The notes beneath the pieces were generated by a model. The model ran no database searches, had not been told where the DNA came from, and saw only the letters and a list, made by a program, of their open reading frames with translations. Below, one piece after another: positions 24,030-63,869 of a stretch of DNA of 64,000 nt (the first letter of the stretch is position 1; every line of letters starts with the position of its first letter). The DNA comes from Dipteris shenzhenensis (Eukaryota). The position numbers and the translations under genes were made by a program. The stretch lies in the NCBI GenBank assembly GCA_047967505.1, contig CM106538.1. The stretch is one strand, 5' to 3'.

Positions 24030-24830
24030 CAGCTCGAGCTCTTTAGCAAATGTTAGCAAGGTATATAAGAAATCTGCAGTGCCATTTAATTTGGCCTATA
24101 AATCTTTGAAGTCGCTTGATGTTTTTGGGGTGGTTTGGCATGTTGAATGGCTACAACTTTGTTTGGATCTATTTCCACTCCATTTTGTGACATGATGTGC
24201 CCTAGTAGAATTCCTCTACTTACAGCAAATGCACATTTGGCTGGGTTTACAGCCATTCTATACTTGGCAAAGCATAAACTGAGATGTTATAGATGCTCCA
24301 ATTTTTTCCCAAATACTGAAAAATCATCAAGGAAAACTTTTATGAAAGATGTAAGATACTTAGCAAAAATACCTCTTGGATGTATTTTTGAAATGTGGGG
24401 GGAGCATTCTTAAGACCAAATGTCATAATATTAGAAGCAAATACCCCCCATTCGATGACAAATGATGTCTTGTCTTTATCTTCAAGTGCCATTCTTATCT
24501 GGTTGTACCCACTGAAACCATCAAGAAAACTATAGATTTCATGACATGCTATAGGATCTAGTAAAGAATCACAAAATGGTAGAGGAAAAGGGTCAGTAAT
24601 TGTGGCAGCATTGAGCTTTCTGTAGTCCACACATATTTTGAGTTTTCCATTCTTTTTGGGCACAATCACAATAGGTGAAAGCCATGTAACATGGGTGAGA
24701 GGATAAATAAAACCAACTCTCAACATCTTGTTGATTTCCTCTTTAACTTGTTTTGCATAGTTGGGATTCATTCTGTACCTTCCCTATATCACTAGCACAA
24801 CATCGTGCTTTAAGTTGATTATGTGTTGAT
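24030..24830 (-). mobile_element. Ty3/gypsy reverse transcriptase fragment
   Basis: WLSPIVIVPKKNGKLKICVDYRKLN, SFLDGFSGYNQI, FGLKNAPPTFQ, then frameshifted KVFLDDFSVF and GILLGHIMS. Confidence 0.95.
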
Positions 24831-25209
24831 AGAACTTAGGGTCTACTCCTTTCATATCAATGTAATGCCAAGCAAAGGCTTTCTATACTCCGTCAATAAA
24901 TCTTTTAAAGCCATTTTGAAAGGTGGAGGGAGACCTATACTTACCAAAACTATTTTGGAAGAGAAGAGGGTGAACAAGGAAGAGAAGCAAGGGAGAAGAA
25001 GAAAGAGAAGTAGAGGGTGAACAAGAGAAGAAAGAGAAGCAACTTTAAAGAAGGACAAGAAGCTTCCATACCTCTATCCAAGGTAAGTCTCTTGACGGTT
25101 GATCTTCTTTGGAAGTTGCTCTCTTTGGATTCATCCTTTGTCGTATGCAGGTCGAACGGATGTTTTTTGTACTAGTGTGGTCAGATGCATGTCCTTTTCA
25201 ATTTCTTAG

Positions 25210-27337: not shown

Positions 27338-30007
27338 AAGGGTTTGTAACTATTATGTGCTATATTGAATGGAAATAAAGATTGCATGCTAACACCAGCT
27401 TTTGTTTAGATACTCCATCTTTTATCGACTACCATATTGGTCCCACCTGAAGATCAATCACCTGCTTGATCCCATGCATATCTTCAATAATGTGGCATCT
27501 ACCATTTGGGAACATTTGAATGGGACACAAAATGCCATAGGCATAAGGGAGGATCTACCCACCACAGGGAGGATGTGTGAAGCTTGGCCACAAGAGAGGC
27601 CAAATGGGCGTATCTTTTTACCTCATGCACCGTGGAGGTTATCAAAGCTAGAGATGGTGGAAGTGAAATGAGCTATCACTATAATTCATACTCCCAGTGG
27701 ATGCATGAGGTGTTTGAAGGGGGCCTTCACAAAGAGCAAGAAAAGAGGTGTAGAGTAATTATATGGCTTGAAATTTCATGATTGGCACAAGATACTCCAA
27801 TTAAGTATTTTATGTGCATAATATCTTTTTCCTTCCAAAATTGTGAGTGAATAAGAAGCAACTAATCAACCATTCCTCTTGTGTTCAGTTCATACTACCT
27901 ACTAGCATTTCTCATAGTGCATTGAAGGATGTGAAGGATTGTATTTACAAGATGGAAGAGCTTGTGAGGTACTTTACAGGATACAAAATGTGAAGCGTAT
28001 CAATGCTCCATGCAAGGTTTTCATATTGCTAATATGGTGTACTTTTTCCTTTCTAGGTATGTGAGCTCAAAGGAAATAGATCCCACCACGCTTGAGAATG
28101 CTCGAGTTATGTCAATGGAGGTTGTTTGTTAAGACATTTCCACGTTCTATTCTCACAAGCCAACTACATCTCATAGTGCATTTTGTGAATGAGATTGCTA
28201 TATGCAGTACTGTACATGCACAATGGTTGTTCTTCCTCGAGCACTTCATGAAGACCTTGAAGGGTTTCGTGAGACAAAATGCAAGGCCTGAAGGTAGCAT
28301 GCCTGAGGGTTGGTTAGTACAATAGTCACTTGTATATATTTCTAAGTTTCTTGTTCATGTGGATAGCTCTCTCCCACCACTATGGAGAGATGATGAAGAC
28401 CTAAGGATGACCCCTATTGTGCCTCAAGGGAAAGGATGGAGCAAAGTAATAGACACAAAGTTGCTTAATAATATCAACCTTTATTGTATGCTTAATAGTG
28501 ATGTGATGAAGAAGATGGGTGACAAGATACGAGGATGCAAATGCAAGAAGACAAGGAGAAAGGGCCCTCTTTTCTACACACCACAAATCTCGTGTGCCAT
28601 ACCCTCATCATCTAAGAGCACTTCCAAAGGATATTCATGTGGATTGGCTACTTGACGAAATGGAGAGAACAGAGACAGATGAGGGGATGCATATCACAAT
28701 GGAAGAATGGGAGTATGCTAGGGGATGCATGAGCAAGGTCGGTATATAGAATGTTATGCATAATTTAGGAGCTTCCAATAATTTAGATTGCTTATTTAAT
28801 TGATTTTGTCTTGGTGTAGTGTACTATGTTCAATGCTATATGGTGTGAGGGCAAGCATTTTTGAACATAATGGATTGATGATAAGAGAAACACAAAAGAT
28901 TATGGTGTCATTGCTAGCTTTGAGGGAGCCAATGGAGCCATGGATGATTATTGTAGCATAATCCAAGATTTCATTAAGCTTGACTTTCGACACTTCTTTG
29001 TGTATGTTAGTGGTTTAAGGACATGGTGGAAAGAGGCCCTAATGCAATAATCAAATGCCATGCAAGTGGCTTTGTAAGTATTGACTCTACAAAGTTTTGG
29101 CAAAGTAAGAAGGACACATGAGTACTACCGTAACAATGTATATAGGTATTGTATACACATATAAAAATACTCACTTTTAAATATTTGATACCTTTGATGC
29201 AAGGAAGATAACATGATTGTGTTTGTGTTTGAATTAAGTTGTCTATCAACCAATGGTGGATAATAATAGGTGGTGGCACGTCATACCTATTATGCCACAT
29301 TCCAAAGTGATCTATAGTACATTTACTAATATGGACCGTATGGAGGATGATCATGGCCATGGACGTGATGATGACCGTGATATGAGAGAGGAAGATGATC
29401 ATGAGATAGGAGATACAAATATTGAGGCCATTACCTGTGAGGATGAGCCTACCATTGGTGATGCTGATTTCAATGAGCACATGTAGTAGTGGGTTGAATG
29501 TATTTGTAAGTCTCAACACTAGTTTGGATTTCGAAGTAGATAATTTGGTAAGTGTTGATCTCATTGAGGATGAGAATGAACCCTAGCCCATCATTAATAT
29601 TGGCAAAACTATTTTACATATTGTCTCATTCTCCTCACCTCACTTAATTTTTGTATATGTGGGTTTGCAAAAAATCATTGATATTTTTATTAAAATTATG
29701 TGCTTTGGTAATCATGAGCAATGTTTGGAAAGCAGCGATGTACATTTATCAGTTTGCACCAAAATCTCACTTTTTGTATTCTCTATTTTGCAACTAAGTT
29801 TGTGTCTAAATCCGTGCCTAATTCGTAGTGCAGACACGCTAATAGATGCACTATTAGATGCGCAAATAGACGTGCTATTAGACACGCCCATATTTTCACT
29901 ATTCTAGTAGCACCTATAGACGTGCCACTATTCTAACAATGCCTATAGACACGCCCACTATTTTGCACATCTATCAAGTGCATCTATAGTTGCTTTGTCT
30001 TGTTGTG
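27338..30007 (+). mobile_element. CACTA/EnSpm-like element remnant 2
   Basis: Contains the transposase; subterminal tagacgcgc-type repeats at 29830-29990; same terminus gctttgtcttgttgtg at 30007. Confidence 0.85.
27402..29330 (+). pseudogene. CACTA TnpD-like transposase, C-terminal part, pseudogenised, with intron-like gaps
   Basis: SIFYRLPYW..HLLDPMHIFNNV, YGLKFHDWHKILQ, HLIVHFVNEI..WLFFLEHFMKTLKGFVRQNARPEGS (DUF4218-like), DYCSIIQDFIKLDF (DUF4216-like), WWHVI. Confidence 0.9.
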
Positions 30008-30541
30008 AATGCCTTCAAGCCTGATAAATTTATGTTGGACCTTGTTCTCTCTTGCCCCATCTTAGTTGTGAATATGGGAGATGGAATTTTTTACTTTGAG
30101 TACAACATGAAAATGGGCTTTGAATATCCCCTGAGACTAGAGTTTAATCTCGCAATGACTTCTCAGCCATAGATGGAGAAGGTAACACTTTGGACAGAGC
30201 CCGTATCAATTCAGGCTCCATCAAACCAAGTGAAGATGACAACGATCATGTTAAAAATCTAGACACTCATGGATTGTATGTCAAGGCATGTTTGATTTCA
30301 ATGCAAAAAAGATGAAGAATTGGTGTTGCCATTGATGTCGATACAAAGAAGCAATCTTCATAGTGGAGGGTGGAAGAAAAGACTGAACATCTCCATCTGC
30401 ATTATGGAAGGTCAAAGGACACGAGTTCTCCAATCTTTACAATGATGAATTTGTGAAGAAGGTGCAATCTTCATAGTGGAGGGTGGAAGAAAAGACGGTA
30501 CATCTCTAACTGGGTTTTGGAGGGTCAAAGAAGACAGGTAC

Positions 30542-31518
30542 TGTTATGGATAAATTTGTCTAAGGAAAAAGGCATTAATATGTGTGTGTGTTTGTACGTG
30601 TGGCAATAGTATAATAAAATATGGTGTGCATAGGGCCCAGGGTTGAGGTGGTAGGGCATGACCATGTGCCACCCTTCCATGTAAGAGGACCCATAAGGTG
30701 TGTTGTACATAATCCATGGTAGTAATATTATAAAATGTAAGGTGGCATGGCTCCTCCATGTGCCACCCCTCCACCTAGGCTGCATTTAGTGAGATATGGC
30801 CCAAAGTCTATGGGAGAAGCAATATAAAATAGGTGGAGATGGATATTATATTGGGTTATTCCCTCCATATAGGATAGGCCCATGTGGGGGAGGTATAGAA
30901 GGTCCAAGAGAGCAAGTTAAATAATGGGGAAAGTTGGCAAGATTCCTTGTGCCAACCCTCCACTTGTCCTCCTAGAGGTTTGAACATATTATAAAATTGG
31001 GAGAGACGAAGGGAGTATCATAGACTTGAGATATGAGGCTTGATTTATGTGGAAAAATGAGGCAAAGGGTTGTCGCACACCATTGAGAGTGCGTAACTGC
31101 CTAGCCCACATGGGAGACTTTTCCACACACCATGCATGTGGGAGGATGCATTTATTGGGAGAGACCCCCTCTCTTGGCTATAAAAGGAGGGGGCTATTCC
31201 TTGATGGGACACGCTCATTCTTGTAAAGCCACCTAGCTAGTACTTTGATTTCTCCCTTCCCTTCCTTTCAAAATAAAGCATGGTCCTCTTCCATTGATGT
31301 CTCCATCTTTACATTCCTCCTCCTATCATGTACACACTTCTCTTCCCTCTCTCCCTTTCCCCTTGTGTCATAGTCTCCCTCTTCATTCCCTCCCCTTCTA
31401 ATTCCTTTTCCCCTCCCATGATAACGTTTCGCCCTCACGTTCTCCTTTCCTCTATGGCCCTCGAGCGTCGCCATGCTTAGCCTCTAGCCTCTGGTCCTGA
31501 TTGCTTTTCAGGCTAACA
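30542..31518 (+). mobile_element. 5' LTR of a gypsy-like element
   Basis: TGTTA...TAACA termini, TATA box ctataaaagg at about 31179, followed 4 nt later by a PBS. Confidence 0.8.
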
Positions 31519-31522
31519 GAAA

Positions 31523-31540
31523 TGGTGTGGCTACTGGGAT
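31523..31540 (+). promoter_or_regulatory. Primer-binding site complementary to tRNA-His(GUG)
   Basis: TGGTGTGGCTACTGGGAT versus the recalled complement of the plant tRNA-His 3' end, TGGTGTGGCTGCTGGGAT (1 mismatch). Confidence 0.75.
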
Positions 31541-32627
31541 CGAAAATCCACGGCTAGTGGTGTAAACTTGTTACTCCTATGACTAGGTGCGGCTCTATAG
31601 CCTCTTCCGTGCACAGTTCTCTACTTTTGCACCTCCAAAATGTGTACCTTCCCTGTCCCTATGGCTGCAAAACCTCCCTGCTTCTGCACTTTCAGTCTGC
31701 CTGCTTTTTGCTCACTTTTCCTACATGTATTCTGGCTGGCAAATCTTCTGCTTATACCGGTCGCATTTGCAGAACTATAACATTTGTGCTCCTTTTGAGT
31801 TCCTACGTGCACATTCAATTCACGCGTCTACTGTGTTCACCTGCGTGACAGTTTTCTAGGCTCGTGTGTCTTCTGGTCGCGGACAGTTTTTTTGAGTTTC
31901 TGCAAAACTGTAACAACAGATCCCATGCCCCCCCCTCTCTCCTCTTCTCTTTCTCTTCTCCTTCTCCTCTCCTCTCCTCTCTTTTAATTAAAGAGTAGGA
32001 TTTGAACCGAAGACCTCCCCCTTCACAAAAGGGAGACTTATCATTGGGCCAACAAGTTGGAAGTGATGAAAATGTAATGATTTTTGTTTATATATTGAAA
32101 TCTCGAGAACTGTAACTCTCTAACCGTGGGGAGTTTACTCGATACATCGTGGTTGATTCAATGTGAAGAACTATTGATACGCTAGGAGAACTTTGATTTT
32201 AATTCTACTCATTGTGCGGTGATCGAGCTGCTTGCTGCTTCGGAGGTAATGAAAAGGGTGTCCTTCATCGAAGGGTGGGATGCTCCCCAAGCTTGGGGAG
32301 AGATTTGGCGCATCTGCTTGTTAATTCCTGTGGATAAGCTCATCTTGAATGGTTTATTCTCAATCTCACTACAAAGGTTTCTAGGCCTCAGCTATGGTTG
32401 GTAATGTTTCGACCAAGGAATCCATTTGTACCTAATCAACCTTTTGTGCCTCATTTTGAGCTTCAAGTTGTAATTCTTTTTGGTTTAAAGATAAACTATC
32501 AACAAAGGATTGCAAGTTTATTTGGTGCTGAACATTTGGCTCAAGTGTTGAATTCTCCCCACCCTCTCCTTCTACCTATCTTGGACTACTGAGAAACTTG
32601 GGATACCCGAATTTTAGTCTTGGTGTG

Positions 32628-33092
32628 ATGACATCTTGGATCCTTCAATTTGATGGAGCTTACAAACCTTCGACCAAGGCTGCTAGCGTGGGTGTGAAGC
32701 TCACTTCACCGGGTGGTGAGGAGTATTGTTATAGCAAGTCTGCACCTGCAAGTACTTGCAATCAAGCTGAGTACTCGGCACTCATTTTTGGGCTACAAAA
32801 GGCACAAGAACATCATGTCAAGCAACTTGAAGTGCAAGGAGATTCTCAACTAGTGTGTGAACAAGTTAGTGGAAAGTGGAAGGTGTAGAGCGAAGGCTTG
32901 GTTCCACGACATCAACAAGCATTGGAACTTTGCAACCAATTTGAAGAGGTAAAAATTCAGCATATCCCTCGAGCTCGAAATCTAGTTGCTGATTTCTTGG
33001 CACGTGAAGCTTGTACTTCAATCATGCATGACGCGAGTGGAAGCACCACCCCAACAAAGCTGCAAGCCATGAAGGAGGGTGATCATTTGTAA
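32628..33092 (+). pseudogene. Type-I (archaeal-like) RNase H with one internal stop
   Basis: WILQFDGA..., TCNQAEYSALIFGL, VQGDSQLV..Q..GKWKV*, IQHIPRARNLVADFLA: the D-E-D-D catalytic set plus the conserved Arg. Confidence 0.9.
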
Positions 33093-33597
33093 GGAATGTA
33101 AAGGTTGTGGTCATCATGAAACTAAGTGTTGGGCATACTTGATACGAGTTTACCGACTTCAAAAGATCATCAGAAAGGTCCTCAAGGACATTGCTCAAAA
33201 GAAGGATGCCAGACCACACACCCCTTGAAGAAATAGCATGGCGACTACAAGAACTGGAAGAAGCTGAAGGTGATGTGCAAGCTCTCCAACTGTTGACATT
33301 TGTCATGGCATTCTTGTTTGCCTTGATGAACAACCTCATGCAACGCCGTGTCTCTAACCCTCGCTTGTAAAGATGGATGTGATATCATGAGGGTTGGTCC
33401 TTTTGAGATTGTCTATGTGCTATTCTATGCTGAAGATTCTTCCCGTGTAGTATTTCACAATACATCAGTCACACCCTACCCTGCCTGTGTGTGCTTTGTG
33501 GATGTATCTTCACCCGATTTTCAGTTCAAGCTTCCTCTTTCTATTGTTTGTCCATAGATAAGCCTCGTCTTGCCTCTCTCTTTTCCATCTTCCAAGC

Positions 33598-34914
33598 ATG
33601 GCTGACATTCTCGTGTTTTGTGGACGGGTGGAAGAAAATCCAAATGAGTATCTTGTGGCCTTCAAGCGCCGTTGTGTTTCTCTCAACTTTCTTACTAAAG
33701 ACAGATGGTTGTTGGTTCTTCCCACATTTCTGGAGGGTTTGGCTCAAGTGTGGTATGAGAAGCAGGCTGAAGACGTTCACCAAAGTTGGCCAAGGTTGAC
33801 AGCAGCGATGATTGAGTACTTCGGCAAAGAAGAGCCGGAGAATGTGTACCTGCACATGGTAAAGTTGAAGCAGTTAGAAGGTGAGATGGCGTGTCGATAT
33901 GTGGATTGAGTAGCCATGCTCCTGGATCGTTTAATTGCCACGCAGGAGGACAATGCCGGATTTGGAGCTAGAATGACTCAACATGTGTTGGGCTACCTTG
34001 TAGTAGGAGCAAGTGACGAATTCTGCCTCAAGCTTAAATGGGAGGATTGGTGCTAGCACATGAGATTGCTCAAAAGTTTGATAAAGTTCAGTCTGACCCC
34101 GAGGACGATTGTCCCTCCGCAACCCCCTCAATCCTACAACAACAACCTAGGGGGTCTAACTCAGGGGCATACCCCCACCCCTCATCGGGGATGTATCCAC
34201 CGCCTCCACCTCAAATGTATGGTCCTCCCTTAGATGCTTACCCTCCAAGGTGTATATTCTCACCCTCCGCCTCGAAGATTTCCCTAGCCTCGCCCACGAG
34301 CCCCCCTCCTTTCTACTCCCTCGGCCCCTCCAGCTAAAGAGGCCCCCCCTGCAACAGAACCTGGAGTCAATGACCTAGACAAGGCCCTGAATGATCTTCG
34401 GCTTGAGATGGTAGGCATCAAAAATCAAGCCAACCGCCCTCCTAGAGACCGTGCTAATGTTGTATGCTACGAGTGCCACCAAAAGGGTCATTATCGCATG
34501 GAATGTCCCAATATTCCAAGGGTGAATCTTTTAAGTGATTCAGGCACTGAGGATTCTGACATAGAGATCCTTAACCTTGGGAAAAGAAGTCGTACCACCT
34601 CGGACCCCTCTCCAAACCATGGACCGGGCCACCCCAGGAAGAAGGTGTCCTTCTCAGAGCCCTCAGATGCTGAGATGGCAGATCCACCAACAGAGAAGAC
34701 TAAAAGATCCCACAGGAGTAAGTGGTCGCCCTCGGATTTTCCCATTGGCTCGGGGCAAGAAGACTATTCAGTCGTTCAGGACCTTGCTCATCATTCTTTG
34801 AGCATCACGCTCCCTCAACTAATAGCATTAAGCCCGAAGGTGAGACGTGAGTTGCAGCAAGGGCTCTCAACAAGGAGGAGCAAGAAAAAGGGAAAGGTAC
34901 GTGAGGTATCTTGA
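33598..34914 (+). pseudogene. Ty3/gypsy gag (capsid and CCHC zinc knuckle), disrupted
   Basis: FLEGLAQVWY...SWPRL; Pro-rich linker; CYECHQKGHYRMEC; DYSVVQDL..ITLPQLIALSP. Confidence 0.85.
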
Positions 34915-34919
34915 AGACT

Positions 34920-36130
34920 TTTATGCTCATTGACAAACGGTAGCTATGAATTAAGGTTCAGTTAGATTCTAAAGCTACAGTTCTTATTGCAATGATGAAA
35001 TGTGAAGAAGATTCACTTACTATTGCTTTGTCCTCATTGCGAGGGTCGTCAGCAATAATCAGTTGGTCATTCATGGAATTATTCGAGTGAACTTTGATGA
35101 TGACAAATGAAATTGTAGTGACAAGATTAAAAACATTGCCGAAACTTGTTCTCATCTGCTTAGAAACCCATGCAAAGTAGCAACCAATAGTAGTCTCACG
35201 TAGAAAAGTAAACACTAAGATTTTTCAAAACTATGTTGATGAACAAAAGACAATTCAGCTGCAGCTAAGGCAAGTATGGGAATTAACAGAAGACAAGAAA
35301 GCTACTTATGAATACATGCTGAAGCAGGCTGACATGCAGAAAAAGCTACATGCAACACAGTTGGAGCTCAAGGAGGTCAAGAGAGAATATGCACAGTATA
35401 GAACCATGCAGGAGAAATAAGTCTCCAAACTCACTGCCAAGGTGAGAGTCCAAAAAGAATGCTTACCTACTATCACGACTTAGTTGGATGAAATGAAGGT
35501 AGGGTTTTTCCCACGGTCGGATCAAATGAGTGAAGCCTGAACATTGAAAATCTATTACTCAAGGAATGCATAAATGCTTTAGAAGGGGTTGACCAAAAAC
35601 TCAGGGAAATGGCAGAGGAAGTTGATGGTATTTTCTTAAGCTCCTCTGACCTCATAGATATGAAGACACAGCTAGTCAAAACATCTCAGGACCTGTGGTC
35701 CAATCTTAAGAAACGCTTGTTTGTTATTGCACAATGACCTTATGAGGCATTTGCATCTGCTGCTTACGCCTATGAGATTATGGCACAGGAATTGGAAACC
35801 CTCAAAGCTACAACACAAACTGCTAAACAGAATCAGATGCCATTGGATGCTGACACAGAAATTTTTCAGCTAACAACAGAGCCTGGGAAGCCAGAGGAAA
35901 CAGAGCAAGGCCACTGCACACAGTTGTCTGCAAAGCATGCAACTTTCCAAAATGAAAAATATTAGGATATAGAATTTATAGCTACTCCCAATCAGGCCTT
36001 AGCCCCTACTACAGATTTTGAAGAGGCAAAGACAAAAATGGAGGAGGAACCAAAGTTGAATACAACTACAGGGAAGACACAGAGGAAGAAGACCCAATTG
36101 CTGCCAAGGCATTGCTGCCAAGGCAGTAGT
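34920..36130 (+). pseudogene. Decayed coiled-coil-rich ORF, probably a TE accessory ORF
   Basis: Q/E/K/L-rich broken frames (e.g. 35780-35965); no domain recognised. Confidence 0.3.
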
Positions 36131-48160: not shown

Positions 48161-48734
48161 TCAAAACTGAAAGAAGCCACTCTGGAATCGCTCATCATAA
48201 AGCTGCCAATGGCCATACCTTGTGTTACTAAGTTGATTTATAATGGGTGGTCTAGCCTGCAGAAACACTCTCAAGTTTTTGAGCTTTTCCTCAGCCTCAT
48301 CTAAAGCTCTCCTCGTCAAATTGGAACATCCAATCAAATCCAGGTGTTCTAAATCGACACAACCATCTGCTATCGATGCCAACCCCTGATCTGATAGCTT
48401 TGAGTACCTCAACTCCAAGTGCTTTAAGTTTGGCATCAGCTTTGAAATTACTTTAACCTCTCCATCAGCTGCTGCTGGCAATATATTTTGCGAGTGTCCC
48501 TGAGGTAGCAAGCTCTTTCTTGCAGGATCATATTCTCCAATAAACCTGTTCCTCTTTAAAACAGTCACAAACTTACAATTTAGACCAATCTGTTCCAGTG
48601 AGAACCACGTCAGGTTTTGGCATTCACTCACATCCAGATGCTCCAGATGTGGGCAGGATTTTGCAATTTGACAGGCAGAGAGATCCGTGAGTCCACTAGA
48701 AGATGCCACTGAGATGCTTCGAATAAAAGGACAC
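48161..48734 (-). CDS. SKIP1: F-box/LRR protein SKIP1-like, last coding exon
   Basis: AG acceptor at 48736-48735; LRRs (CPHLEHLDVSEC, LEHLDLIGC); C-terminal RYGHWQLYDERF signature; TGA at 48163-48161. Confidence 0.92.
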
Positions 48735-49231
48735 CTGTATTTTTTCAAAAAGCATCACATTTAATTTTGCTGAACTCAAACTTCTGCTGTTTCCTTCCTT
48801 TTGTAAATATATACGTAAATATGCATGCATGTAGGGATGTACATATGTAAGTATGTATGTATGTAAAAGAGACAGAATAACACTATGCAAATAAAACATG
48901 CAAGTCCTTTAGCTCCTCTCTCAGCAAGAGGTGAGGGATTTAATGATGCAATTAGCAGCCCGAATTCAAGTTCTTGAAGGACCTGGCAAGCAAGCAGTAA
49001 TTGATGAGGTAGTAAAGTCTTGCAAAGCTTCCCCTCCTACCCCTCAGTTAGTCTCTATGATTGAAGATCTAGTTCATACTGGAGTACAAACTATCAAAAA
49101 GTAAATAATTATAGAGTTTGATGCAAACATAAATAAAGCTGACATCCAAGAAGAGATCAATGAGAATGCAGCTCACGTGATAATGCTTTGAAGATCAGAA
49201 TTGGGGGACTCCCTGAAGGAACTTGATATAC

Positions 49232-50995: not shown

Positions 50996-53900
50996 TGTTA
51001 TGCTCTAGCCGAGATAGCATGACCTCGGAAAGATCGGTGGGCATTTTCCCTTAGAGGACCGACTTCAGTAATATTTCATGTGCGTAAATTAAATGGTCAA
51101 GGGACGTAACTGCCAAGGTCCTAGGTGAGGGTGTATTGGCATCGACTAGGTGGTTCTGAGTGCTCAGGCCTAGGTGCACCTAAATGTGTAAGAATGCCAA
51201 GGGGCAAATGTTTTAATTGTGCCCCAAGAGAGGGGTAAATGGTGTACCAAGCTAAAGGTCTAAAATGATGAAATGTGGCAGGAGGGAACCATCTAGGGAT
51301 TTGTGGGCTTGTGGATAGGCATGAAGAAAATGAATTACGTATCTTGTGGGCATGCAATCCATGAGATAGGCTGGGAGGAAAATCAGATGCTATCACCTGT
51401 GATTCGACGGAAAGGACGAGAGATTAGTATTGAGTGTCTCATTTGGTATCAGAGCGCAAAATGTTTGGGATGTGTGATGACGGACAATACGGAGGTGATG
51501 GCGCAGCTTGATGGTCACGGACGTCATCGCAGGCGTGGGATTTCTTGGAGGGAGGACCTGGCTTCTCGGTAGAATCCATATACTGTTCGTGGGCTCAACA
51601 AAGTTGGTCGGTACTGTGCTACCATCCCTAGCTTAATTCGCAGAATCAAGGGAGCTTTTTACAAGGCTGTAATCGGGAGGCACACGACGGGAAGTCCGAC
51701 GGATAAGCGGACGTCGTTACAGCTGTACCATGTGGTGTTTTCAAAACTCCTTGGCTTCGTGGGTGTGCAAGCTGTGTAATAGTTGGGTAGATTGATGAGC
51801 AGCGCCGAAGATGCGTGGAAGAGTTACGCATCTGGCATGTGGTCACGCAAATAGCCCATTAGCGAGGTGATCGTCTGAGCGCGGGTACGGTTACGTGCGC
51901 AGTGCCTTGGTTGGTGGCAGTGAATCCTGAAGCTACTGTATGGTCACGGGACTTGCTTCGTGATATTCCGTCAACTACATGGGAATGGGTTCAAATAACT
52001 CTACGAAGTCTGAGAGACGGAGGAGTGGCGCAGATTTTCGAGGCTTGCAAAGGCTTTGACAGAAGAAATAAGTTCGGGACATCTGCGTTACGTGGAGCTT
52101 CCAGAGGGCATCTTTTTTCCCTTCTATACAAAATTTCAGTTTTCAGTTTGCAGTCTATTATTCCTGTACAGCAAAGGGGAATTTGAAGTGTAATATACTT
52201 TTGGAGTTTTGGCGTACGGAAAGAAGTGAAAAATAAAAATAAAAAATCTATTTTCCCTTTTGAAAGAATGGAGGCAGAGGGACAAGATTCTAGGGTAAAT
52301 CCTGGTGAATCTAGAGCGTGATCTACGCAACAAGTGTCCCATCACACAACACCTACTCTGGTGGGTAGGATTTCTGTACTAGAAGATGCCTTACAACAGA
52401 TCATGAACCAGCAGCTTCAAGTGAACGCTGGTCAAAATGAAATTAGAGAGATGGTGCAAGCCTTGTCGGCTAGACCATCTAGAAATGAAAAGGGCAAAGC
52501 TCCAGCAGAGCCAGAGCCCAGTATACACTCGTCGGAACATGCGAAGGTCAAGGTACCTAATATTGCCAATTATAGACCGGAAAAGTACGCTGGTCGGATG
52601 ACCGAGCGCAGTTCTGATGTGATCGAGGTTTGGTTACACAAGTGGGAAGAAGCCTTCGCCATTTGTGAAATCAGATCTGATCTAAAGAAAATCCGTGAGA
52701 CCACTCACCTGTTTATCGAGGCAGCAGATAGGCGGTGGATAAAACAACAGAAAGATCAGGTTGCCCCTACCACCTGGGAAGGGTTTAAGGCTGAATTTAA
52801 GAAACACTTTCTTCCACCTGACGAAGAGTCCCAAGCTTGGTATGCTTACAGAAACCTTCGCCAGAGGAATTTATCAGTGGCAGAGTACACTGGCAAGTTC
52901 AGGGAATGTGTTATGAAAATAACGGACCCTCTCCCTATGTCGGTTCAGTTGAAAGACTATATCTATGGACTGAACGACAAGATTAAAATGGAAGTTCGGG
53001 CTAAATATGTGACTACATTAGATGAATCTATTGCAGTAGCCCTGAACTATGAGGATGCCAGAGGCAGACCTAGTGGGTTTGTGCAGGCAGGGACTCAGCA
53101 TGAGTATCCAAGAAAAGGGGGATTTCAGAGGAAATGGACTTCAAAGGCCAGTGTCTTGCAGCCAAGTGGCCAAACCAAGCAGGTGAAGCCGGTTGAGGGA
53201 TAAGCAAAAACAAGTACCACCGTTGGGGTGAAAAGAAAAGTAACTCCAATGGCAGCCCGGGCTTGGTCAACGTCCTCGTTGACCCCTGAGCAAAAAGAAA
53301 AACTAGAAAAGAAGGATTGTGCTTCGGCTGCCTTCAGCAACAACAGTGGAAAGATTGTCCACTAAACAAAGACCGTCACACGGCCAATATGATAATATCT
53401 GAATGCGACGCGAAAATGCAAGAGAGTCCCAATGCGGAACCTATGCAGATGCAATTGGCGGGACCTTCTCAGAAGTTAGTATCTGTGTTGTTAAGTGTGT
53501 CTGTTACTAAGTTAGTAAGCGGTGCACCCGATAACATCCTTTCAAAGCCCGCAGCAACGGGGTATACGGTTTTCGATGAGCCCAAGTTGATTAAAATGAA
53601 AGGGCAAGTAGCTAATCATGATGTAATTGTATTGTTTGACTCAGCATCAACGCACAATGTAATTAACTCAAAGCTTATTAAGAGGCTCAAGTTGAAAACT
53701 AGTCCGTCTGACTATGCTTATGCGGTCAGGATGGCGGATGGAAGTTCAACTGAAGTATGGGACCAGAGGGTTACCCAGTTGGAACTTTGAATTCAGGACT
53801 ATGTTGAGAAGCTAGACTTTGAGTTGACCAGGCTTGCTCACGCAGATATAGCCCTAGGCATGGCTTGGCATTTTTGGAAAAAACCAGCCATTGATTGGAA

Positions 53901-54838
53901 AAAGTGTATTTACGAGTTCAAGATGAACGGGGTAGAACATGTTTTGCGAGGTGAAAAGGATTTACCTCGAGGACCATTGATTTCAGCCATGGAAATTCGG
54001 AAGACTCCGAAAGAGTTTCTCTGTCTGTGTATAGCATCGATAGAGTCGATTGATGATGCATCGGCTAGCACAAAGGCTACCGAAGATGGGGAAATGGGGC
54101 CTAGTTGGCTAAAGAGATATCGGAGTTCTCTGATTGTTTTAGGGATGAGTTACCTCCAAAGCGGAATGTTCAACATAAATTTGAGCTTATCCCGGGGGCA
54201 GAACCTGTAAATAGACCTCCCTATAGATTAAGCTTTACAGAAGAAGCTGAGTTGCGAAGACAACTGGAAGAATACCTCAAGCTGGGACAAATTCAACCCA
54301 GTTTTTCACCTTTTTCTTCGCCAGTGATATTAAAGAAGAAGAAAGATATACTTTTCGTCTCTGTATAGATTACAGAGCATTGAATAATATCACTATTAAG
54401 CACAGGTATCCGATGGCTCGGATCAATTATTTGCTCGATGCATTACATGGGGCTGTAATTTTCAGTGCGTGAATTAAATGGTCAAGGGAAGTAACTGCCA
54501 AGGTCCTAGGTGAGGGTGTATTGGCATTGACTAGGTGGTTTTGAGTGCTCAGGCCTAGGTGCACCTAAATGTGTAAGAATGCCAAGGGGCAAATGTTTTA
54601 ATTGTGCCCCAAGAGAGGGGTAAATGGTGTACCAAGCTAAAGGTCTAAAATGATGACATGTGGCAGGAGGAAACCATCTAGGGATTTGTGGGCTTTTGGA
54701 TAGGCATGAAGAAAATGAATTACGTATCTTGTGTGCATGCAATCCATGAGATAGGATGGGAGGAAAATCGGATGCTATCGCCTGTGATTTTGCCTGTGAT
54801 TCGACGGAAAGGACGAGAGATTAGTATTGAGTGTTTCA
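50996..54838 (+). mobile_element. Ty3/gypsy element A, internally deleted
   Basis: 5' LTR 50996-51441 (TG..CA); Met PBS 51444-51455; gag, protease (VLFDSASTHN) and start of RT; 5'-truncated 3' LTR at about 54455-54838; TSD CTAAA at 50991-50995 and 54839-54843. Confidence 0.95.
52334..54466 (+). pseudogene. gag-protease-partial RT of element A (frameshifted)
   Basis: [75 protein letters not shown]. Confidence 0.9.
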
Positions 54839-55381
54839 CTAAATCCGTTAGAGGACTGAGGACATGAATTTCGAGCTCCATATAAGTTGCTTCAGGCCTA
54901 AACACTCAATGAGTGGTCATAAGAGCAATAGCTAATAAAAAGACAATGCACAATTCAAGAAACTAAGTCTTTGCAATGTTGTTAATCTCCCGCTATGCTT
55001 CCACAGAAGAAACCTGAATGCAGCCCCTCAAGGTCAAAAGCTTAGGCTAACATGGAAAGATTGTAGCTGCAATAGAGTGCCCACTTTGACAAAATAACTT
55101 TAAAAGCACTACATAGGCTAAACAAGGCAGCCCACAATTATAAAATTGCTATAGGCTGATGGTATCTTCCATGATCCACCCTCCCCCTCCTCCCCTCCTC
55201 TTCCTTCACCTCACCCTACCTCTAATCCCCTCACCTCTAATTAGACTAGTTTCATGTGAGCCTCACGTTGCAGGGAAACCCCATAATAGAATCAAGATAC
55301 TACTATTTAAGGCATCAAGTATTCTTACTCCAGGTCACCACGTCAAAGATTGACAATTGTTGTTCTCAAGACACCCACAAT

Positions 55382-58300
55382 TGTGACCACTGAAACCGGC
55401 CTTCAGTTTCCTGAAGGGCAGTAGACCATAACTTGCATTGCATATTCATTATTCACAGCCACATTGCATCATTTCCAACTACTTAACTTTAAACAATACC
55501 ACTTAGAAACAACTTGAGAAATAACTAGATGGAGGCTAGAGTGCCCCTGCTCAATGGAACCAAGTACAAGACACCACACTGGCCCCAAACACTTGGCGCC
55601 CCTTCCGGTATTTATTTATTTCTTTAGGCATGAAATTGGTACATACAACAAGGGCTCTCCCTTGTGCTCTTCCCCACGGGCAATTCCATTGTCCAAGCCA
55701 AACCTTGGCTATAAACTGCATTCCATCCTAGTGCACACACTAGCACCCAAGTGCCAAGGCAAAGCTAAGGCATTCACCATTTGTCCATGACCAACTGTAA
55801 AAGTATCCAAGCATTCCACAAAGACTGTAACCAACTTTGAATGACCAGGCATCCAGACACTTCCCGAAATGCTCAAGCAGCCTCAAGGATTCCAAATGCA
55901 ATACACTACCCCTCTGGCACTCTCCCAGGCACACCCTCTGTAACTGAGTGTCTACTTAAGCCTGTAAGGTCCAAAGGAAACTCCAAACAACAAACGGAAC
56001 AACAACAAGCTTCCAAAAATCACCAAATGCAATCACATGAAAGGGATAGTGACAAGAGAACTCAAACCAGCTTCAGACAACTTCAATCCAGCCCCAGATC
56101 AGCTCCAAGGAACTCCAATCCGGTCTAGAAAACCTCCATGGGCAACAGATCCAATGTGGAGGCTAATAGGAGGCAATGACAGCTTGGAGAGGGGAGGGTA
56201 GAGAGAGAAAGAGCAAGAAGATCACGGTTAGGAAAGAGAAGCTGAGCAGCTAGCCATGAGTGTTGGGGAGTCTAAATGGGCCGTACAAACAGCCAAAACT
56301 GCCTTGGGCTGTGTGAAAACAGTCCGTACAGCAATAGCCACACCTTGGAATGCGTACTAACTGATCCGTACAGCAGGCCCGTTCCGTACAGCAGCCATGA
56401 CTGTTCCATACAATCAGCCTTGGGATGTGTACCTCTCCCTTACAGCCAGCAATGAATGCAATTCAGCCACCTTGGCTCACATGCCAATCAAAAGTTCTGT
56501 CCGTACAGCAGGCTAGCAATCCGTACAGCAGCGTTGAAAGCACCGTACAGCAGCACTTATGGAATCCGTGCAGCAGCCTGTACACTTGCAGCCAGCCTCG
56601 ATCAGCAGCCTGTACAGCAGTACGGCTGCTTCAAATCACCAGCAGCAGGTCCACAGCCGTACGGTGACCTCGAGGAGCGTGCAATATCCATACAGCATGC
56701 AGCGTGCGTAAGGACTCCGTACAGTCCGCTCCTTCAATGCAGTTTCTGCAGTACGTACAGCCGTACGGGCTGCCTCGAGATGTGTGCAGGCCAAGAAATG
56801 CAAGGAGTTAAGTCTTCCTTGGACTTCGTACGGCGTGCCCTCTTCACCTTGGGATGCGTGGAAAAAAAAAAGAGAGAAAGAACCCACGTCCCAAAACTCG
56901 CTTTTTGCCTTGGAAGGAGAGGAAGAGGGTAGGTATGCATGAGGAAATGCCACGTGGCCCCCTCATTAAAGCTCTAACCCTTGCAAACCAATGGAACATT
57001 GGTTTGCCCCTCACATTAAAATCCTAACCCCTTCTAACCAATGAAACATTGGTTTCCTTGGGCCTAACTTTAAGACCCCTCTAAAGCTTGCCTTACCCCT
57101 AGCAAGTAGGCCTAGTGACCTAGGGACTTCTGGGAAGTGTCTCTTCCCCTGGGCTAGCCCCCAAAGCCAAAGTTAGTCACGGTTCATAAGTTCAAGTCCC
57201 CGTGACATACCCTCCTCTTGAAACAGCAAACTATCACGTTTGTTGCTATAAACATAAACCACCAGCAATGATGATATGGTCTAGGAAAGCGCGCGTGTCC
57301 ATCCATATATCAATGCATCATCCGTGTGGAGTGACTAGTACACTCATCATGGAAGTCTCGTAGCAGATGTATTGTCAGCAAACAATACCTCGGGTGAGAC
57401 ATACAGTGTCACCAAGCGACTTCTAGATACCGTGAGCCTGTCTGTTGACAAGGGGGTGGAGGAACTACCCCCCTCTTGAGCATCAGGCAATGCTCTAGAC
57501 CTATGCTCTGCTGAGCCTAAAGGAGCTACAACCGAAGTCAGCTCAAAGCACAACAACTGAGTGGACTACACCACTTTGAGTGAAATCTGCTAGTTCACTC
57601 GCCTCCAATAACTTGAACCACACACACATGGCAATAATGGATCCTAGGAACATAGATCCTGGTACTCGATATCCTTTCAGACTTGCATCACCGCAAGCTG
57701 AATCGGTTCAGCCGATCTATGCTAGACTTGGATCCTTGTCTCATGGTTCAAATAAAAAACCAACTAGCATGTACTAAATGGATTTACTGCTCGAGCCATG
57801 CCGGGCAACAAGAGCATCCAAAATAGGCATGTGATACATGGATGTGCTGCTCTAGCCATGCCGGGCAACAAGAGCAATCCAACAAGAACAAGGACTACTT
57901 ATTCTGCAATTTACCATTCAGCCATCAACAAAACTAGCAGGGAAGAACCATCCTCCAAATTAGAAAGCAGCCTAGAAAGAGGAAACTCTCCAATTTCTGG
58001 CTGTTACAAATATTCATACCAATATTACTGTTTTTTTTTTAAAACCAAAGGAAAACAAATCTCCTAGCGCGCGTGGCTGTCCTTTTTCGCTTCGTGTGCT
58101 CCCATAGGTTGTTTCCGTTTACGATTGGGGCAATCTTTGGCCTGATGGCCCTCTTCTTTGCAAAGGAAACACTTTCCAGCTTCAAATAGGGCTTGCCGTT
58201 CCTCATGAGACAATCTCTCTTTGGTACTTGGCTTACTATTAGGTCGCTGGTCCACATCAAACTTGACTTTGGTTGTCTTGACAAATTTCCTTTTCGTGAA

Positions 58301-59405
58301 AGAGTCATCCTGCTGCTTACCTTTGAATCCTGGAGTCATCCCTTGCATGAGAGCATAGGCTGTAGTAGCATTCTCAATCAGTTGAGATATGTTGGAGACC
58401 TTTGTCTTGGTGCAATAGTCACGAAGCTCCTTTGGCAGTCCACAACAATACTTTTCCACCTGCTCACACAATGATACGGTCCTATACGAGCTGACTGGCA
58501 ATAAGGCCTCCCAAAACTTTTTGTTATACTCTTCAAGATTCTTACAGTGTGCGGCATCCAGCTTATGCCATGTTGTCATGCAGCGATGACTGTTCTGTAC
58601 AATCAGCCTTGGGATGCATACCTCTCCCGTACAGCCAGCAATGAATGCAATTCAGCCACCTTGGCTCACGTGCCAATCAAAAGTTCTGTCCGTACAGCAG
58701 GCTAGCAATCCGTACAGCAGCGTTGAAAGCACCGTACAGCAGCACTTATGGAATCCGTGCAGCAGCCTGTACACTTGCAGCCAGCCTCGATCAGCAGCCT
58801 GTACAGCAGTACGGCTGCTTCAAATCACCAGCAGCAGGTCCGTACAGCCGTACGGTGACCTCGAGGAGCGTGCAATATCCGTACAGCATGCAGCGTGCGT
58901 AAGGACTCCATACAGTCCGCTCCTTCAATGCAGTTTCTGCAGTCCGTACAGCCGTACGGGCTGCCTCGAGATGTGTGCAGGCCAAGAAATGCAAGGAGTC
59001 AAGTCTTCCTTGGACTTCGTACGGCGTGCCCTCTTCACCTTGGGATGTGTGGAAAAAAAAAAGAGAGAGAGAACCCACGTCCAAAAACTCACTTTTTGCC
59101 TTGGAAGGAGAGGAAGAGGGTAGGTATGCATGAGGAAATGCCACGTGGCCCCCTCATTAAAGCTCTAACCCTTGCAAACCAATGGAACATTGGTTTGCCC
59201 CTCACATTAAAATCCTAACCCCTTCTAACCAATGAAACATTGGTTTCCTTGGGCCTAACTTTAAGACCCCTCTAAACCTTGCCTTGCTGCCCTAGCAAGT
59301 AGGCCTAGTGTGTGCACCTAGGGACTTCTGGGAAGTGTCTCTTCCCCTGGGCTAGCCCCCAAAGCCAAAGTTAGTCACGGTTCATAACTTCACGTCCCCG
59401 TGACA
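55382..59405 (-). mobile_element. LTR element B, non-autonomous (partial gag only)
   Basis: Closely matching LTR segments 56391-57207 and 58580-59405, both starting TGTCACGGG on the minus strand; PPT aagaggagggta at 57208-57219; 3' LTR probably ends ..GGTCACA at 55382. Confidence 0.9.
58064..58579 (-). pseudogene. Partial gag of element B with CCHC zinc knuckle
   Basis: LEEYNKKFW, YCCGLPKEL, CFLCKEEGHQAKDC. Confidence 0.85.
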
Positions 59406-61935: not shown

Positions 61936-63164
61936 TCCTCAGCAAGAATTGCTATGCTAAAAAGCAATAGACACAGGACAGCAAGCCTTTTTAACTTTAT
62001 CATTCTGCATCCAACAAGGATCCCAAACCAGCCTGTGTGCACCGCAGACGAGTTCTCTCTCAATTCTATTTTGTGCAGAACTGAGCTAAACCGTGAGACG
62101 TAATCTTAAAAAATAGGACAACAGATACAGATCCCCTTGCACATGAAAGTACAACCTCATTTTCAATGACCTCCTTCCTTGTAATATGTATACCACTCTT
62201 AAATCTCATTCAAATCTTTTAGGAGATAAGCCTTGTACTTCGCATATCTGTATAGAAGTTATACCAGAACATAGCCTGCTATTCGAAAGTTCCCTCCTCC
62301 ATGTTTCTTTGTGGAGGCTTCAAATACATCGATGGGTCCCAAAAGGTGGGGATTAGTAATCATAACTTTCTTTCATCCTATCCCATATATATACCTTTAA
62401 AAGACTCGAATAGATTCAATCTTATAAATCACAATTTTTTTATAGAACAAGCAAAAGAAAGCGACTTTAGACAAACTTAGGAGTAAATGAGAAAAATAAA
62501 AATAAGGATAACTTAGTCAGCAAAGCTACGCTTATGTTTACATCAGTACCCAAGCAAAAACTGCCATCTGGGTTTTGAAAGATTCCGGAATCCCTTGGGT
62601 AAAATCCTATCCCATATGCCTAGACCCTAGGGACTTCATAAAATCAATCCTTCAGGGCCAGAAATCGTTAGATAACCAAAGGACAACAGAGACTTACAAA
62701 GCTCTTCGAGATAACAGAAGCAAGAACATGTGCAAGATAAGAAGGCCCATAAATGCATCAAGCCTCTCTGCGATTGATTGTACATGCATTTAGAGATGCT
62801 ACCGAAGCGCTAGCGTAAGACTCGAGGCAGGTACAACCTTCTTTAAGAATCCAACGCCAATAATGCGCAGCTATTGCGTAGAGATAAAATTGCAGCCCAT
62901 AAATTATGCTTAAACATAGCGAGGGTAAGAGCTCTACAGTCATGACCGTCGAAAATAAGACGGAGCGAATTGGGAAAGACGTGGGGCAAGACCCTGTAAC
63001 AAAGGTCAAGTCGGAGTGAGGTAGTGTAGAAGAGCACTATGCGACCTCTGCAGAAGGATGAATGAGCGAGCGAGACTGTCCTTCGTTATACTTTTCATAT
63101 AGATGCACCTTTCCTAAATTTAGAGTAACAAATAACACTGGTAAAGGAGAGAGAATAGGCGCAC

Positions 63165-63484
63165 CTTGAAGCCAGGTAACACAGCGCTGCATTGGAGCAA
63201 TGACGAGTGGAAAGCTCGCGCATATTCCCACAGCTCCGATCGACTACCAATTTGATAATATAATCAATTTTCTTCTCGAAAGACGGCTGCCACCACATGG
63301 AAGTCTCCTCTCTCTTCCGGAAGGAATCTTCCATATTCACGCACTCCCAACAAGCAGAATCGGCGGACGCTCTTCTCCAAGTCTTGCAAACCAGCGGCAC
63401 GGAGAGGTAGAGGTCCTCGAAGCCCACTCTCTTGAAAATCTCCACAAGGGCTTCGTGGGTGAGGTCGGCCCAGGAAGCATCCAT
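63165..63484 (-). CDS. SKIP1: F-box/LRR protein SKIP1-like, F-box exon
   Basis: MDASWADLTHEALVEIFKRV..VCKTWRRA..FEKKID..VVDRS..RHCSNAAL; donor AG|GTGCGC at 63164; phase-2 splice gives YLASRCPF and an 894-nt CDS. Confidence 0.92.
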
Positions 63485-63869
63485 ACCCACAAAGCGGGAA
63501 GGCTCTCTTTGGGATCGGAATGAGCAAGAGAAACTTGGAAATTGAATACGATGGACAGATGAAGAGCTTGAGACAATTTGCGAGGTTACTGACAGCTACA
63601 ATTTGCCGTTTTTTTCAGCCATATCCAGTAACAGAAGGTCGGAGCCAACGGAGAGAGCTTACAAATTACTGTCTTTGCAGTGTAGAGCAGCTGTCAACGT
63701 GCAATTCCAAAAGTCCAAAGGGAAAATTCCATCACCCACAAACTTCCAACAGAAGAACAACCAAAACAAAAATTCCCGCGAGATCCGATGCTCTTATCGA
63801 TGTTTAGAATGCTTTACAATACTCCCTATGCATCTCTTTCTTCTTCTCTGCCCAACAATTCTCTTTCAC

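Follow-up and report, generated by a model that had tools for sequence, protein, structure and literature searches.

A decayed, 3'-truncated Ty3/gypsy-like retrotransposon with a separate RNase H reading frame ahead of gag, most likely of the Tat lineage

The stretch of DNA analysed here, a window of 64,000 nucleotides from contig CM106538.1 of assembly GCA_047967505.1, carries on its plus strand, at 30542-34912, one copy of a long terminal repeat (LTR) retrotransposon in which an RNase H is encoded by an open reading frame (ORF) of its own ahead of gag. Its parts follow one another in the order 5' LTR, a sequence resembling a primer-binding site (PBS), leader, RNase H ORF, spacer and gag (Table 1). 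We think it likely that this locus represents an old copy, decayed at CpG sites and truncated at its 3' end, from a multi-copy family of plant Ty3/gypsy-like LTR retrotransposons, most likely of the Tat lineage and with the layout published as 'structure #4' or 'pre-capsid', and that the protease and the rest of pol are present in other copies of the family. Most of its differences from other copies are transitions, and CpG occurs in it at an observed/expected ratio of 0.22-0.50; both features fit an old, methylated copy.

A first-pass annotation of the same DNA had described an LTR, a PBS, a leader of ~1.1 kb, an RNase H ORF with its own ATG at 32628, catalytic residues and one stop, a spacer of ~500 bp and a gag, all on one strand, with neither pol nor a 3' LTR. 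Our analysis recovers each of these parts on the plus strand, at or near the same positions. The description of the RNase H agrees with the Pfam matches and with the alignment of its catalytic DEDD residues, and that of the missing parts with our searches of the window, which found neither a further copy of the element nor its 3' LTR or pol within the 64 kb. The gag, too, is there, but it is not intact, being interrupted by internal stops and differing from other copies, which carry small insertions relative to it at 34044-34245. The hallmarks of an LTR retrotransposon that can be seen are thus the 5' LTR and the PBS-like site, the 3' half being missing from this copy.

Table 1. Features of the retrotransposon copy, in window coordinates
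Feature	Position	Strand	Basis or remark
5' LTR, TG...CA ends	30542-31518 (977 bp)	+	sequence
PBS-like 22-mer, TGG-led	31523-31544	+	4 nt past LTR end; sequence
Leader	31519-32627 (1109 bp)	+	sequence
Stand-alone additional RNase H (aRNH) ORF, pseudogene in this copy	32628-33092	+	Pfam RVT_3, DEDD
Zinc-knuckle codons, +1 frame relative to RNase H	33088-33129	+	motif scan
RNase H-gag spacer	33093-33597 (505 bp)	+	sequence
gag pseudogene	33598-34911	+	Pfam, relatives, knuckle motif
3' truncation point of the copy	34912-34914	+	contig continuations

The RNase H ORF is compact. It runs for 154 codons from its own ATG to a stop at 33090-33092, and in this copy it is broken once, by an in-frame stop at 32886-32888. 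Pfam recognises it as RVT_3 (E 4.8e-26) and as RNase_H (E 2.9e-07), and alignment with RNase H enzymes of solved structure shows the catalytic DEDD set to be complete, as D9, E48, D72 and D122. A word-index protein search found nine family members with 72-85% identity to the window ORF. The clusters P0039 (25 members) and P0040 (8 members) hold intact ORFs of 154 residues whose first and last residues are the same as those of the window ORF, and which are 81-82% identical to it across 100% of the query. The best relatives of P0039 among solved structures are type-1 RNases H of archaeal and actinobacterial kind, namely 4e19 (E 2.8e-17), 3hst and 2ehg/3aly, with E-values from 2.8e-17 to 2.5e-11. 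Their catalytic residues align with those of the family, but they are cellular enzymes, some with extra domains, whereas the protein encoded here is a minimal, retrotransposon-borne domain. Judged by its sequence, the RNase H is of the archaeal-like type-1 kind, as in Tat elements.

Contigs from public sequencing runs show that this ORF is not peculiar to the copy in the window. Nine rows of a run search contained some of the stretch; no row reached half of its words, and the highest share was 0.26. From four of these coded runs we aligned contigs to 29800-35800 at 80% likeness (X1, 337 contigs; X2, 72; X3, 388; X9, 7), and neither small shares nor uncovered parts (30202-30402, 35227 onward and, in X1, 31609-31809) were counted as absence. 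In all four runs the cover is restricted to ~30540-34912. X1 and X3 have depth in each 200-bp bin of 31810-35025, as does X2 from 30403 on, and the seven contigs of X9 comprise one on the LTR, five on the leader, RNase H and gag, and one outside the element at 35555-35649. A single X2 contig (contig 13; 1027 nt, 31 differences) covers 32488-33514, and so spans the upstream leader, the RNase H and most of the spacer. Pieces from the other runs, at 32458-32680, 32832-32976, 33071-33361 (contig 6), 33488-33641 and 33631-33764 in X1, at 33349-33562 in X3 (contig 22) and at 32177-32530, 32553-32959 and 33659-33948 in X9, together tile 32177-33948, so that RNase H, spacer and gag are unbroken. The joints listed for the four runs, all of them in X3, are small internal deletions and one gag deletion, and none deletes the whole RNase H. 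The stop at 32886 is replaced by a sense codon in the covering contigs of X1, X2 and X3.

In this multi-copy family the RNase H thus forms a conserved ORF that stands alone, and it is no private nested insert. It belongs to the family because RNase H, spacer and gag are contiguous in other copies and because intact 154-residue ORFs with matching ends exist elsewhere. The first-pass annotation had named two findings that would tell against its proposal, an RNase H missing from other copies or one brought in by an unrelated nested insertion; the four runs and the intact ORFs of equal length point the other way on both. Plant long interspersed nuclear elements (LINEs) carry an RVT_3-type RNase H at the end of ORF2, and this copy is decayed and lies in a transposon-rich region, so that a piece of some unrelated element, for instance a 5'-truncated LINE, could conceivably have become nested in this copy alone. 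We give that explanation hardly any weight, in view of the contiguity of leader, RNase H, spacer and gag in four runs and of the exactly equal length of the intact ORFs. The surroundings of the ORF are not those of a plant LINE (L1) either: upstream of 32613 on the plus strand we found no reverse transcriptase (RT) similarity, upstream of the ATG neither RT nor zf-RVT similarity, and among the 38 longer proteins matched by the RNase H no LINE-type protein, and the ORF is followed by a gag, not by a tail.

An RNase H ORF placed before gag is not a new architecture. Biryukov and Ustyantsev 2023 (PMC10508981) defined a Tat 'structure #4', with a solo ORF for the additional RNase H (aRH) ahead of gag, in mosses and one clubmoss (Selaginella), and Prokopeva et al. 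2026 (PMC13468544) listed the same layout as 'pre-capsid', with credit given to the 2023 study and also to Wang et al. The first-pass annotation had proposed a distinct architecture with a separate 5' RNase H ORF; the separate ORF stands, and is owned by the family, but the layout has been in print since 2023. The copy in the window belongs to this published kind, most probably Tat structure #4 or pre-capsid. It has an aRH of the archaeal-like type 1 with an intact DEDD set, a kind known from Tat elements, and this aRH occupies an ORF of its own, with its own ATG and stop, downstream of the 5' LTR, upstream of gag and on the same strand as gag, as in structure #4. It differs from that structure in a zinc knuckle, in the +1 frame at the RNase H stop, of which the available accounts in PMC10508981 and PMC13468544 make no mention.

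Two other arrangements in the Tat lineage are instructive by comparison. In Tat 'structure #1', the retrovirus-like dual RNase H arrangement represented by the flowering-plant Tat/Retand-type proteins P0005, P0013 and P0018, the aRH is also of the RVT_3 family, and these are the nearest longer relatives of our ORF, at 35-42% identity. There, however, the aRH lies inside pol, after the native RNase H and before the integrase, whereas the present family has it in a separate ORF that precedes gag. Elements of the Tat/Ogre type, which belong to the Tat lineage, resemble the present family in having an additional ORF in a long leader upstream of gag, as mentioned by Ustyantsev et al. 2015 (PMC4408406), but their extra ORFs carry PMD or transposase-28 domains, of unknown role, and not an RNase H.

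Does the RNase H itself place the family in Tat? Of 301 candidates, 38 longer proteins were matched: 27 are LTR-type pol proteins in which RVT_3 lies inside pol beside RT_RNaseH, RVT_1, rve and Integrase_H2C2 (identity 35-42%), the arrangement of flowering-plant Tat elements, three carry a SAP domain, and eight have RVT_3 alone or with other domains. At 35-42% identity, the family RNase H is about as far from free-standing RNase H proteins as from the aRH of Tat pol proteins. A maximum-likelihood tree was built by quick search from 75 segments of RNase H; its named pol-embedded rows are from flowering plants only, it holds no Tat B or C rows (mosses and clubmoss), no LINE rows and no named archaeal rows, and in it the family forms a separate long branch with a support of 100.

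The long branch, which is not nested among the sampled pol-embedded aRH, and the near-equal distances would be consistent with a second, convergent origin, in which a gypsy family outside Tat acquired its RNase H elsewhere, be it from an RNase H gene of the host, from a LINE or from a microbe. We judge such an uptake improbable. The longer matches include no LINE-type protein, and the kin to be expected for our family, the moss and clubmoss Tat B and C elements, have no place in a tree with the composition just given. Moreover, according to PMC10508981, every LTR retrotransposon with an aRH across 92 green plants fell in Tat, and it is for this reason, among others, that Tat membership appears to be the best reading of the present family.

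The gag begins with an ATG at 33598 and can be followed in one frame through 34911, across four internal stops. It comprises a capsid region (33598-34040), a proline-rich linker with frame breaks (~34040-34290), a canonical CCHC nucleocapsid knuckle (34465-34506) and a pre-protease region (34650-34911). Where this copy has the stop at 33907-33909, the covering contigs of X1, X3 and X9 have a sense codon. In this copy the Pfam matches are weak (Retrotrans_gag E 0.018; zinc knuckle E 0.016-0.036), but a family fragment with a 57% identical gag, P0086, matches Retrotrans_gag at E 2.1e-07, above the Pfam cut-off; the gag fragments of the family, P0086-P0090, have 54-68% identity. An exhaustive search with the gag frame gave 152 matches at E up to 0.001, of which 37 were scanned with Pfam and five carry pol domains. 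The C-terminal end of gag matches P0116 (protease, RT_RNaseH and RVT_3; 41% identity, E 5.2e-07) and P0186 (RVT_3), and a search for longer proteins with the C-terminal half of gag gave no significant match among 858 candidates. A DUF4100 match at the gag C-terminal end (E 0.14) was dropped; none of 22 relatives matches this family at E up to 0.1, and the term is absent from the literature searched.

Where the copy in the window ends, others go on. Contigs of X1 and X2 extend past 34912 with one common continuation of 30 letters that is absent from the window and that, read by eye, encodes the following residues of the family fragment P0088. P0088 itself runs 34 residues past its last aligned residue, toward the position occupied by the protease in the relatives P0103 and P0107. 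From the shared continuation and the extension of P0088 we conclude that this copy was cut off at 34912 and that other copies continue into pol. The contig depth is 0 from 35227 in X1 and X3. Searches for a full-length copy of the family in metagenome contigs of the Joint Genome Institute (JGI) and in IMG/VR found none: with the RNase H alignment 163 pattern matches in the JGI contigs, with the gag alignment 139, and in the IMG/VR scan 113, were followed by no confirmed match.

At the other end of the element, X2 contig 9 aligns from 30540, its preceding 307 letters differing from the window, and thereby marks the left border of the LTR; X2 contig 11 stops at 31516, near the LTR end. In X1 the summed contig depth peaks in the bins of the LTR (117-373, compared with 51-105 inside the element), although this is a weak measure. 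A putative TATA-like motif was read by eye in the LTR at 31179-31186. The PBS-like 22-mer may correspond to the 3' end of a plant tRNA-His, which it seems to resemble; ARAGORN found no tRNA genes in the window, and hence no local match for the PBS. Immediately upstream, at 30346-30542 on the plus strand, an 84-bp unit is present in two tandem copies, 113 bp apart and 82-88% alike, which end exactly at the LTR start.

Between these borders and the RNase H, the leader is poorly shared with other copies over 31609-32140. X1 shows a depth of 0 at 31609-31809, two X2 contigs depart from the window sequence behind 32140, and contigs of X1 and X9 start aligning only at ~32143-32177. Copies of a 9-bp direct repeat, at 31906 and 32108, bracket 193 bp (31915-32107); such a repeat would occur by chance with an estimated probability of ~0.2, and the bracketed stretch could be a short insertion nested within the leader. 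It holds a CT-rich tract (31927-31993), masked as a repeat in the contig alignment, and a weakly tRNA-like piece (~31994-32060, minus strand). A tRNA identity for this piece was supported by neither ARAGORN nor Rfam; Rfam gave no match above its gathering scores anywhere in the window, and only two chance-level ones in 30000-35500.

The poor cover, the diverging contigs and the bracketing repeat would also suit a history in which the LTR/PBS block and the RNase H-spacer-gag block come from two families, or in which this copy is a recombinant; the RNase H-gag order would then be a true feature of the family, and the full LTR-PBS-RNase H-gag order a local chimera. We regard this as quite unlikely, given that both blocks occur in all four runs, even in X9 with its seven contigs, that X3 contig 17 (31432-31924; 55 differences, 34 gaps) links the LTR end into the leader as far as 31924, and that the two blocks lie on the same strand with the PBS-like site directly after the LTR. 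It is this locus, the co-occurrence of the blocks in all four runs and the logic of strand and PBS that lead us to treat the two as parts of one element.

Several observations nevertheless weigh against a Tat structure #4 element as the source of the copy. No pol of the family was seen, nor the RT by whose phylogeny the Tat lineage is defined. In the RNase H tree, with its want of moss and clubmoss Tat aRH, the family falls neither on the pol-embedded side (47 rows, including all 29 pol-embedded ones, support 91) nor on the side of the free-standing and SAP proteins (23 rows, support 90). Among the five distant gag relatives with pol domains, three (P0161, P0169 and P0174, with gypsy pol) are without RVT_3, and likeness in gag alone does not therefore single out Tat. 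The contigs are compatible with the existence of family copies devoid of the RNase H, and no bridging molecule from another copy shows the continuity from LTR and PBS to RNase H across 31609-32140.

How might an RNase H encoded outside pol serve reverse transcription? The genomic RNA would start in the LTR, and the 154-residue RNase H, as its first long ORF, would be made as a free protein of ~17 kDa that supplies catalytic RNase H activity in trans. Such help would be needed because the native RNase H of pol, as reported in PMC10508981, is degenerate in all Tat structures bearing an aRH, whatever the position of the aRH. Translation of Gag, or Gag-Pol, would have to begin further downstream, through reinitiation or internal entry or on an RNA from which the spacer had been spliced out; simple leaky scanning to gag is unlikely because the spacer contains 14 ATGs. 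The spacer itself was rejected as coding sequence: in the gag frame it has seven stops in ~157 codons, approximately the random expectation, and no family protein extends tellingly into it.

Two features at the RNase H stop may be relevant here, and we offer them as leads only. The first is a perfect CX2CX3GHX4C knuckle, CKECKGCGHHETKC, encoded on the plus strand at 33088-33129 in the +1 frame relative to RNase H, which overlaps the RNase H stop and is in the same frame as gag. Three motifs of this form occur in the six frames of the window, the other two being gag nucleocapsids, and 200 block shuffles gave a mean of 0.005. The knuckle peptide in the +1 frame had no Pfam match at E up to 1, and of the RNase H relatives P0001-P0085, 85 in number, none carries the motif. 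It may be the remnant of an earlier, fused arrangement, or it may extend the enzyme through a frameshift. The second is a donor-like GTAAG at 33089-33093, also overlapping the RNase H stop codon, together with an acceptor-like site identified by eye, a pyrimidine tract and AG within 33540-33558 with the AG at 33556-33557, 40 nt ahead of the gag ATG. Splicing between these two sites would leave the RNase H protein unchanged and drop the spacer with its 14 ATGs.

These leads can be taken one step further. It is possible, though we consider it unlikely, that the host is neither a moss nor the one clubmoss with the reported layout and that the family shows by what means a free RNase H becomes linked to the particle: a +1 shift at the RNase H stop would add an RNA-binding knuckle and so tether the enzyme to the genomic RNA, or splicing would bring gag near enough for reinitiation.

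The neighbourhood of the element is rich in other repeats. Just upstream, at 28080-28655 on the plus strand, a DUF4218 (transposase-associated) fragment with an in-frame stop (E 1.3e-16) is probably part of a decayed CACTA-type DNA transposon, and at 29800-30000 the summed X3 depth of ~1400, with many contigs diverging at ~29958 and 30007, indicates another high-copy repeat. A Ty3/gypsy reverse transcriptase fragment on the minus strand at 24125-24918 (RVT_1, E 9.1e-12), which is not part of the element studied here, has 56% identity over 68 residues to the RVT_3-bearing P0186. Further downstream, 51073-59405 holds another gypsy-like element: on the plus strand, 52322-54466 contains a gag (Ty3_capsid, E 2.4e-12), a protease and a short stretch of RT, the minus strand has a second gag knuckle at 58130-58171, and direct repeat pairs lie at 51073/54458 (96%) and 56391-56952/58580-59143 (97%). 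The only host-gene-like pieces seen are F-box and leucine-rich repeat (LRR) ORFs on the minus strand at 63098-63595 and 48164-48754; the nearest atlas clusters to the F-box ORF are Streptophyta F-box proteins.

The value of this locus is mainly one of confirmation: in one family, a solo RNase H ORF is seen directly between the 5' LTR/PBS and gag, and other copies have it intact. Its visible LTR borders make the locus useful as evidence, given that the published accounts disagree on the structure in mosses: PMC10508981 describes Tat B elements of mosses with a solo aRH upstream of gag, PMC13468544 (section 2.4) gives the moss structure as post-integrase, and section 2.1 of the latter notes conflicting reports on the positions of solo ORFs. 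The family would gain in interest should its host be neither a moss nor Selaginella, or should the knuckle or the splice-like signals turn out to be conserved. How an aRH outside pol could work is stated in the literature to be unclear, and the knuckle and the splice-like signals are testable leads on this point; if the proposed coupling of the free enzyme to the particle is true, it would be the first mechanistic handle on how an aRH outside pol serves reverse transcription.

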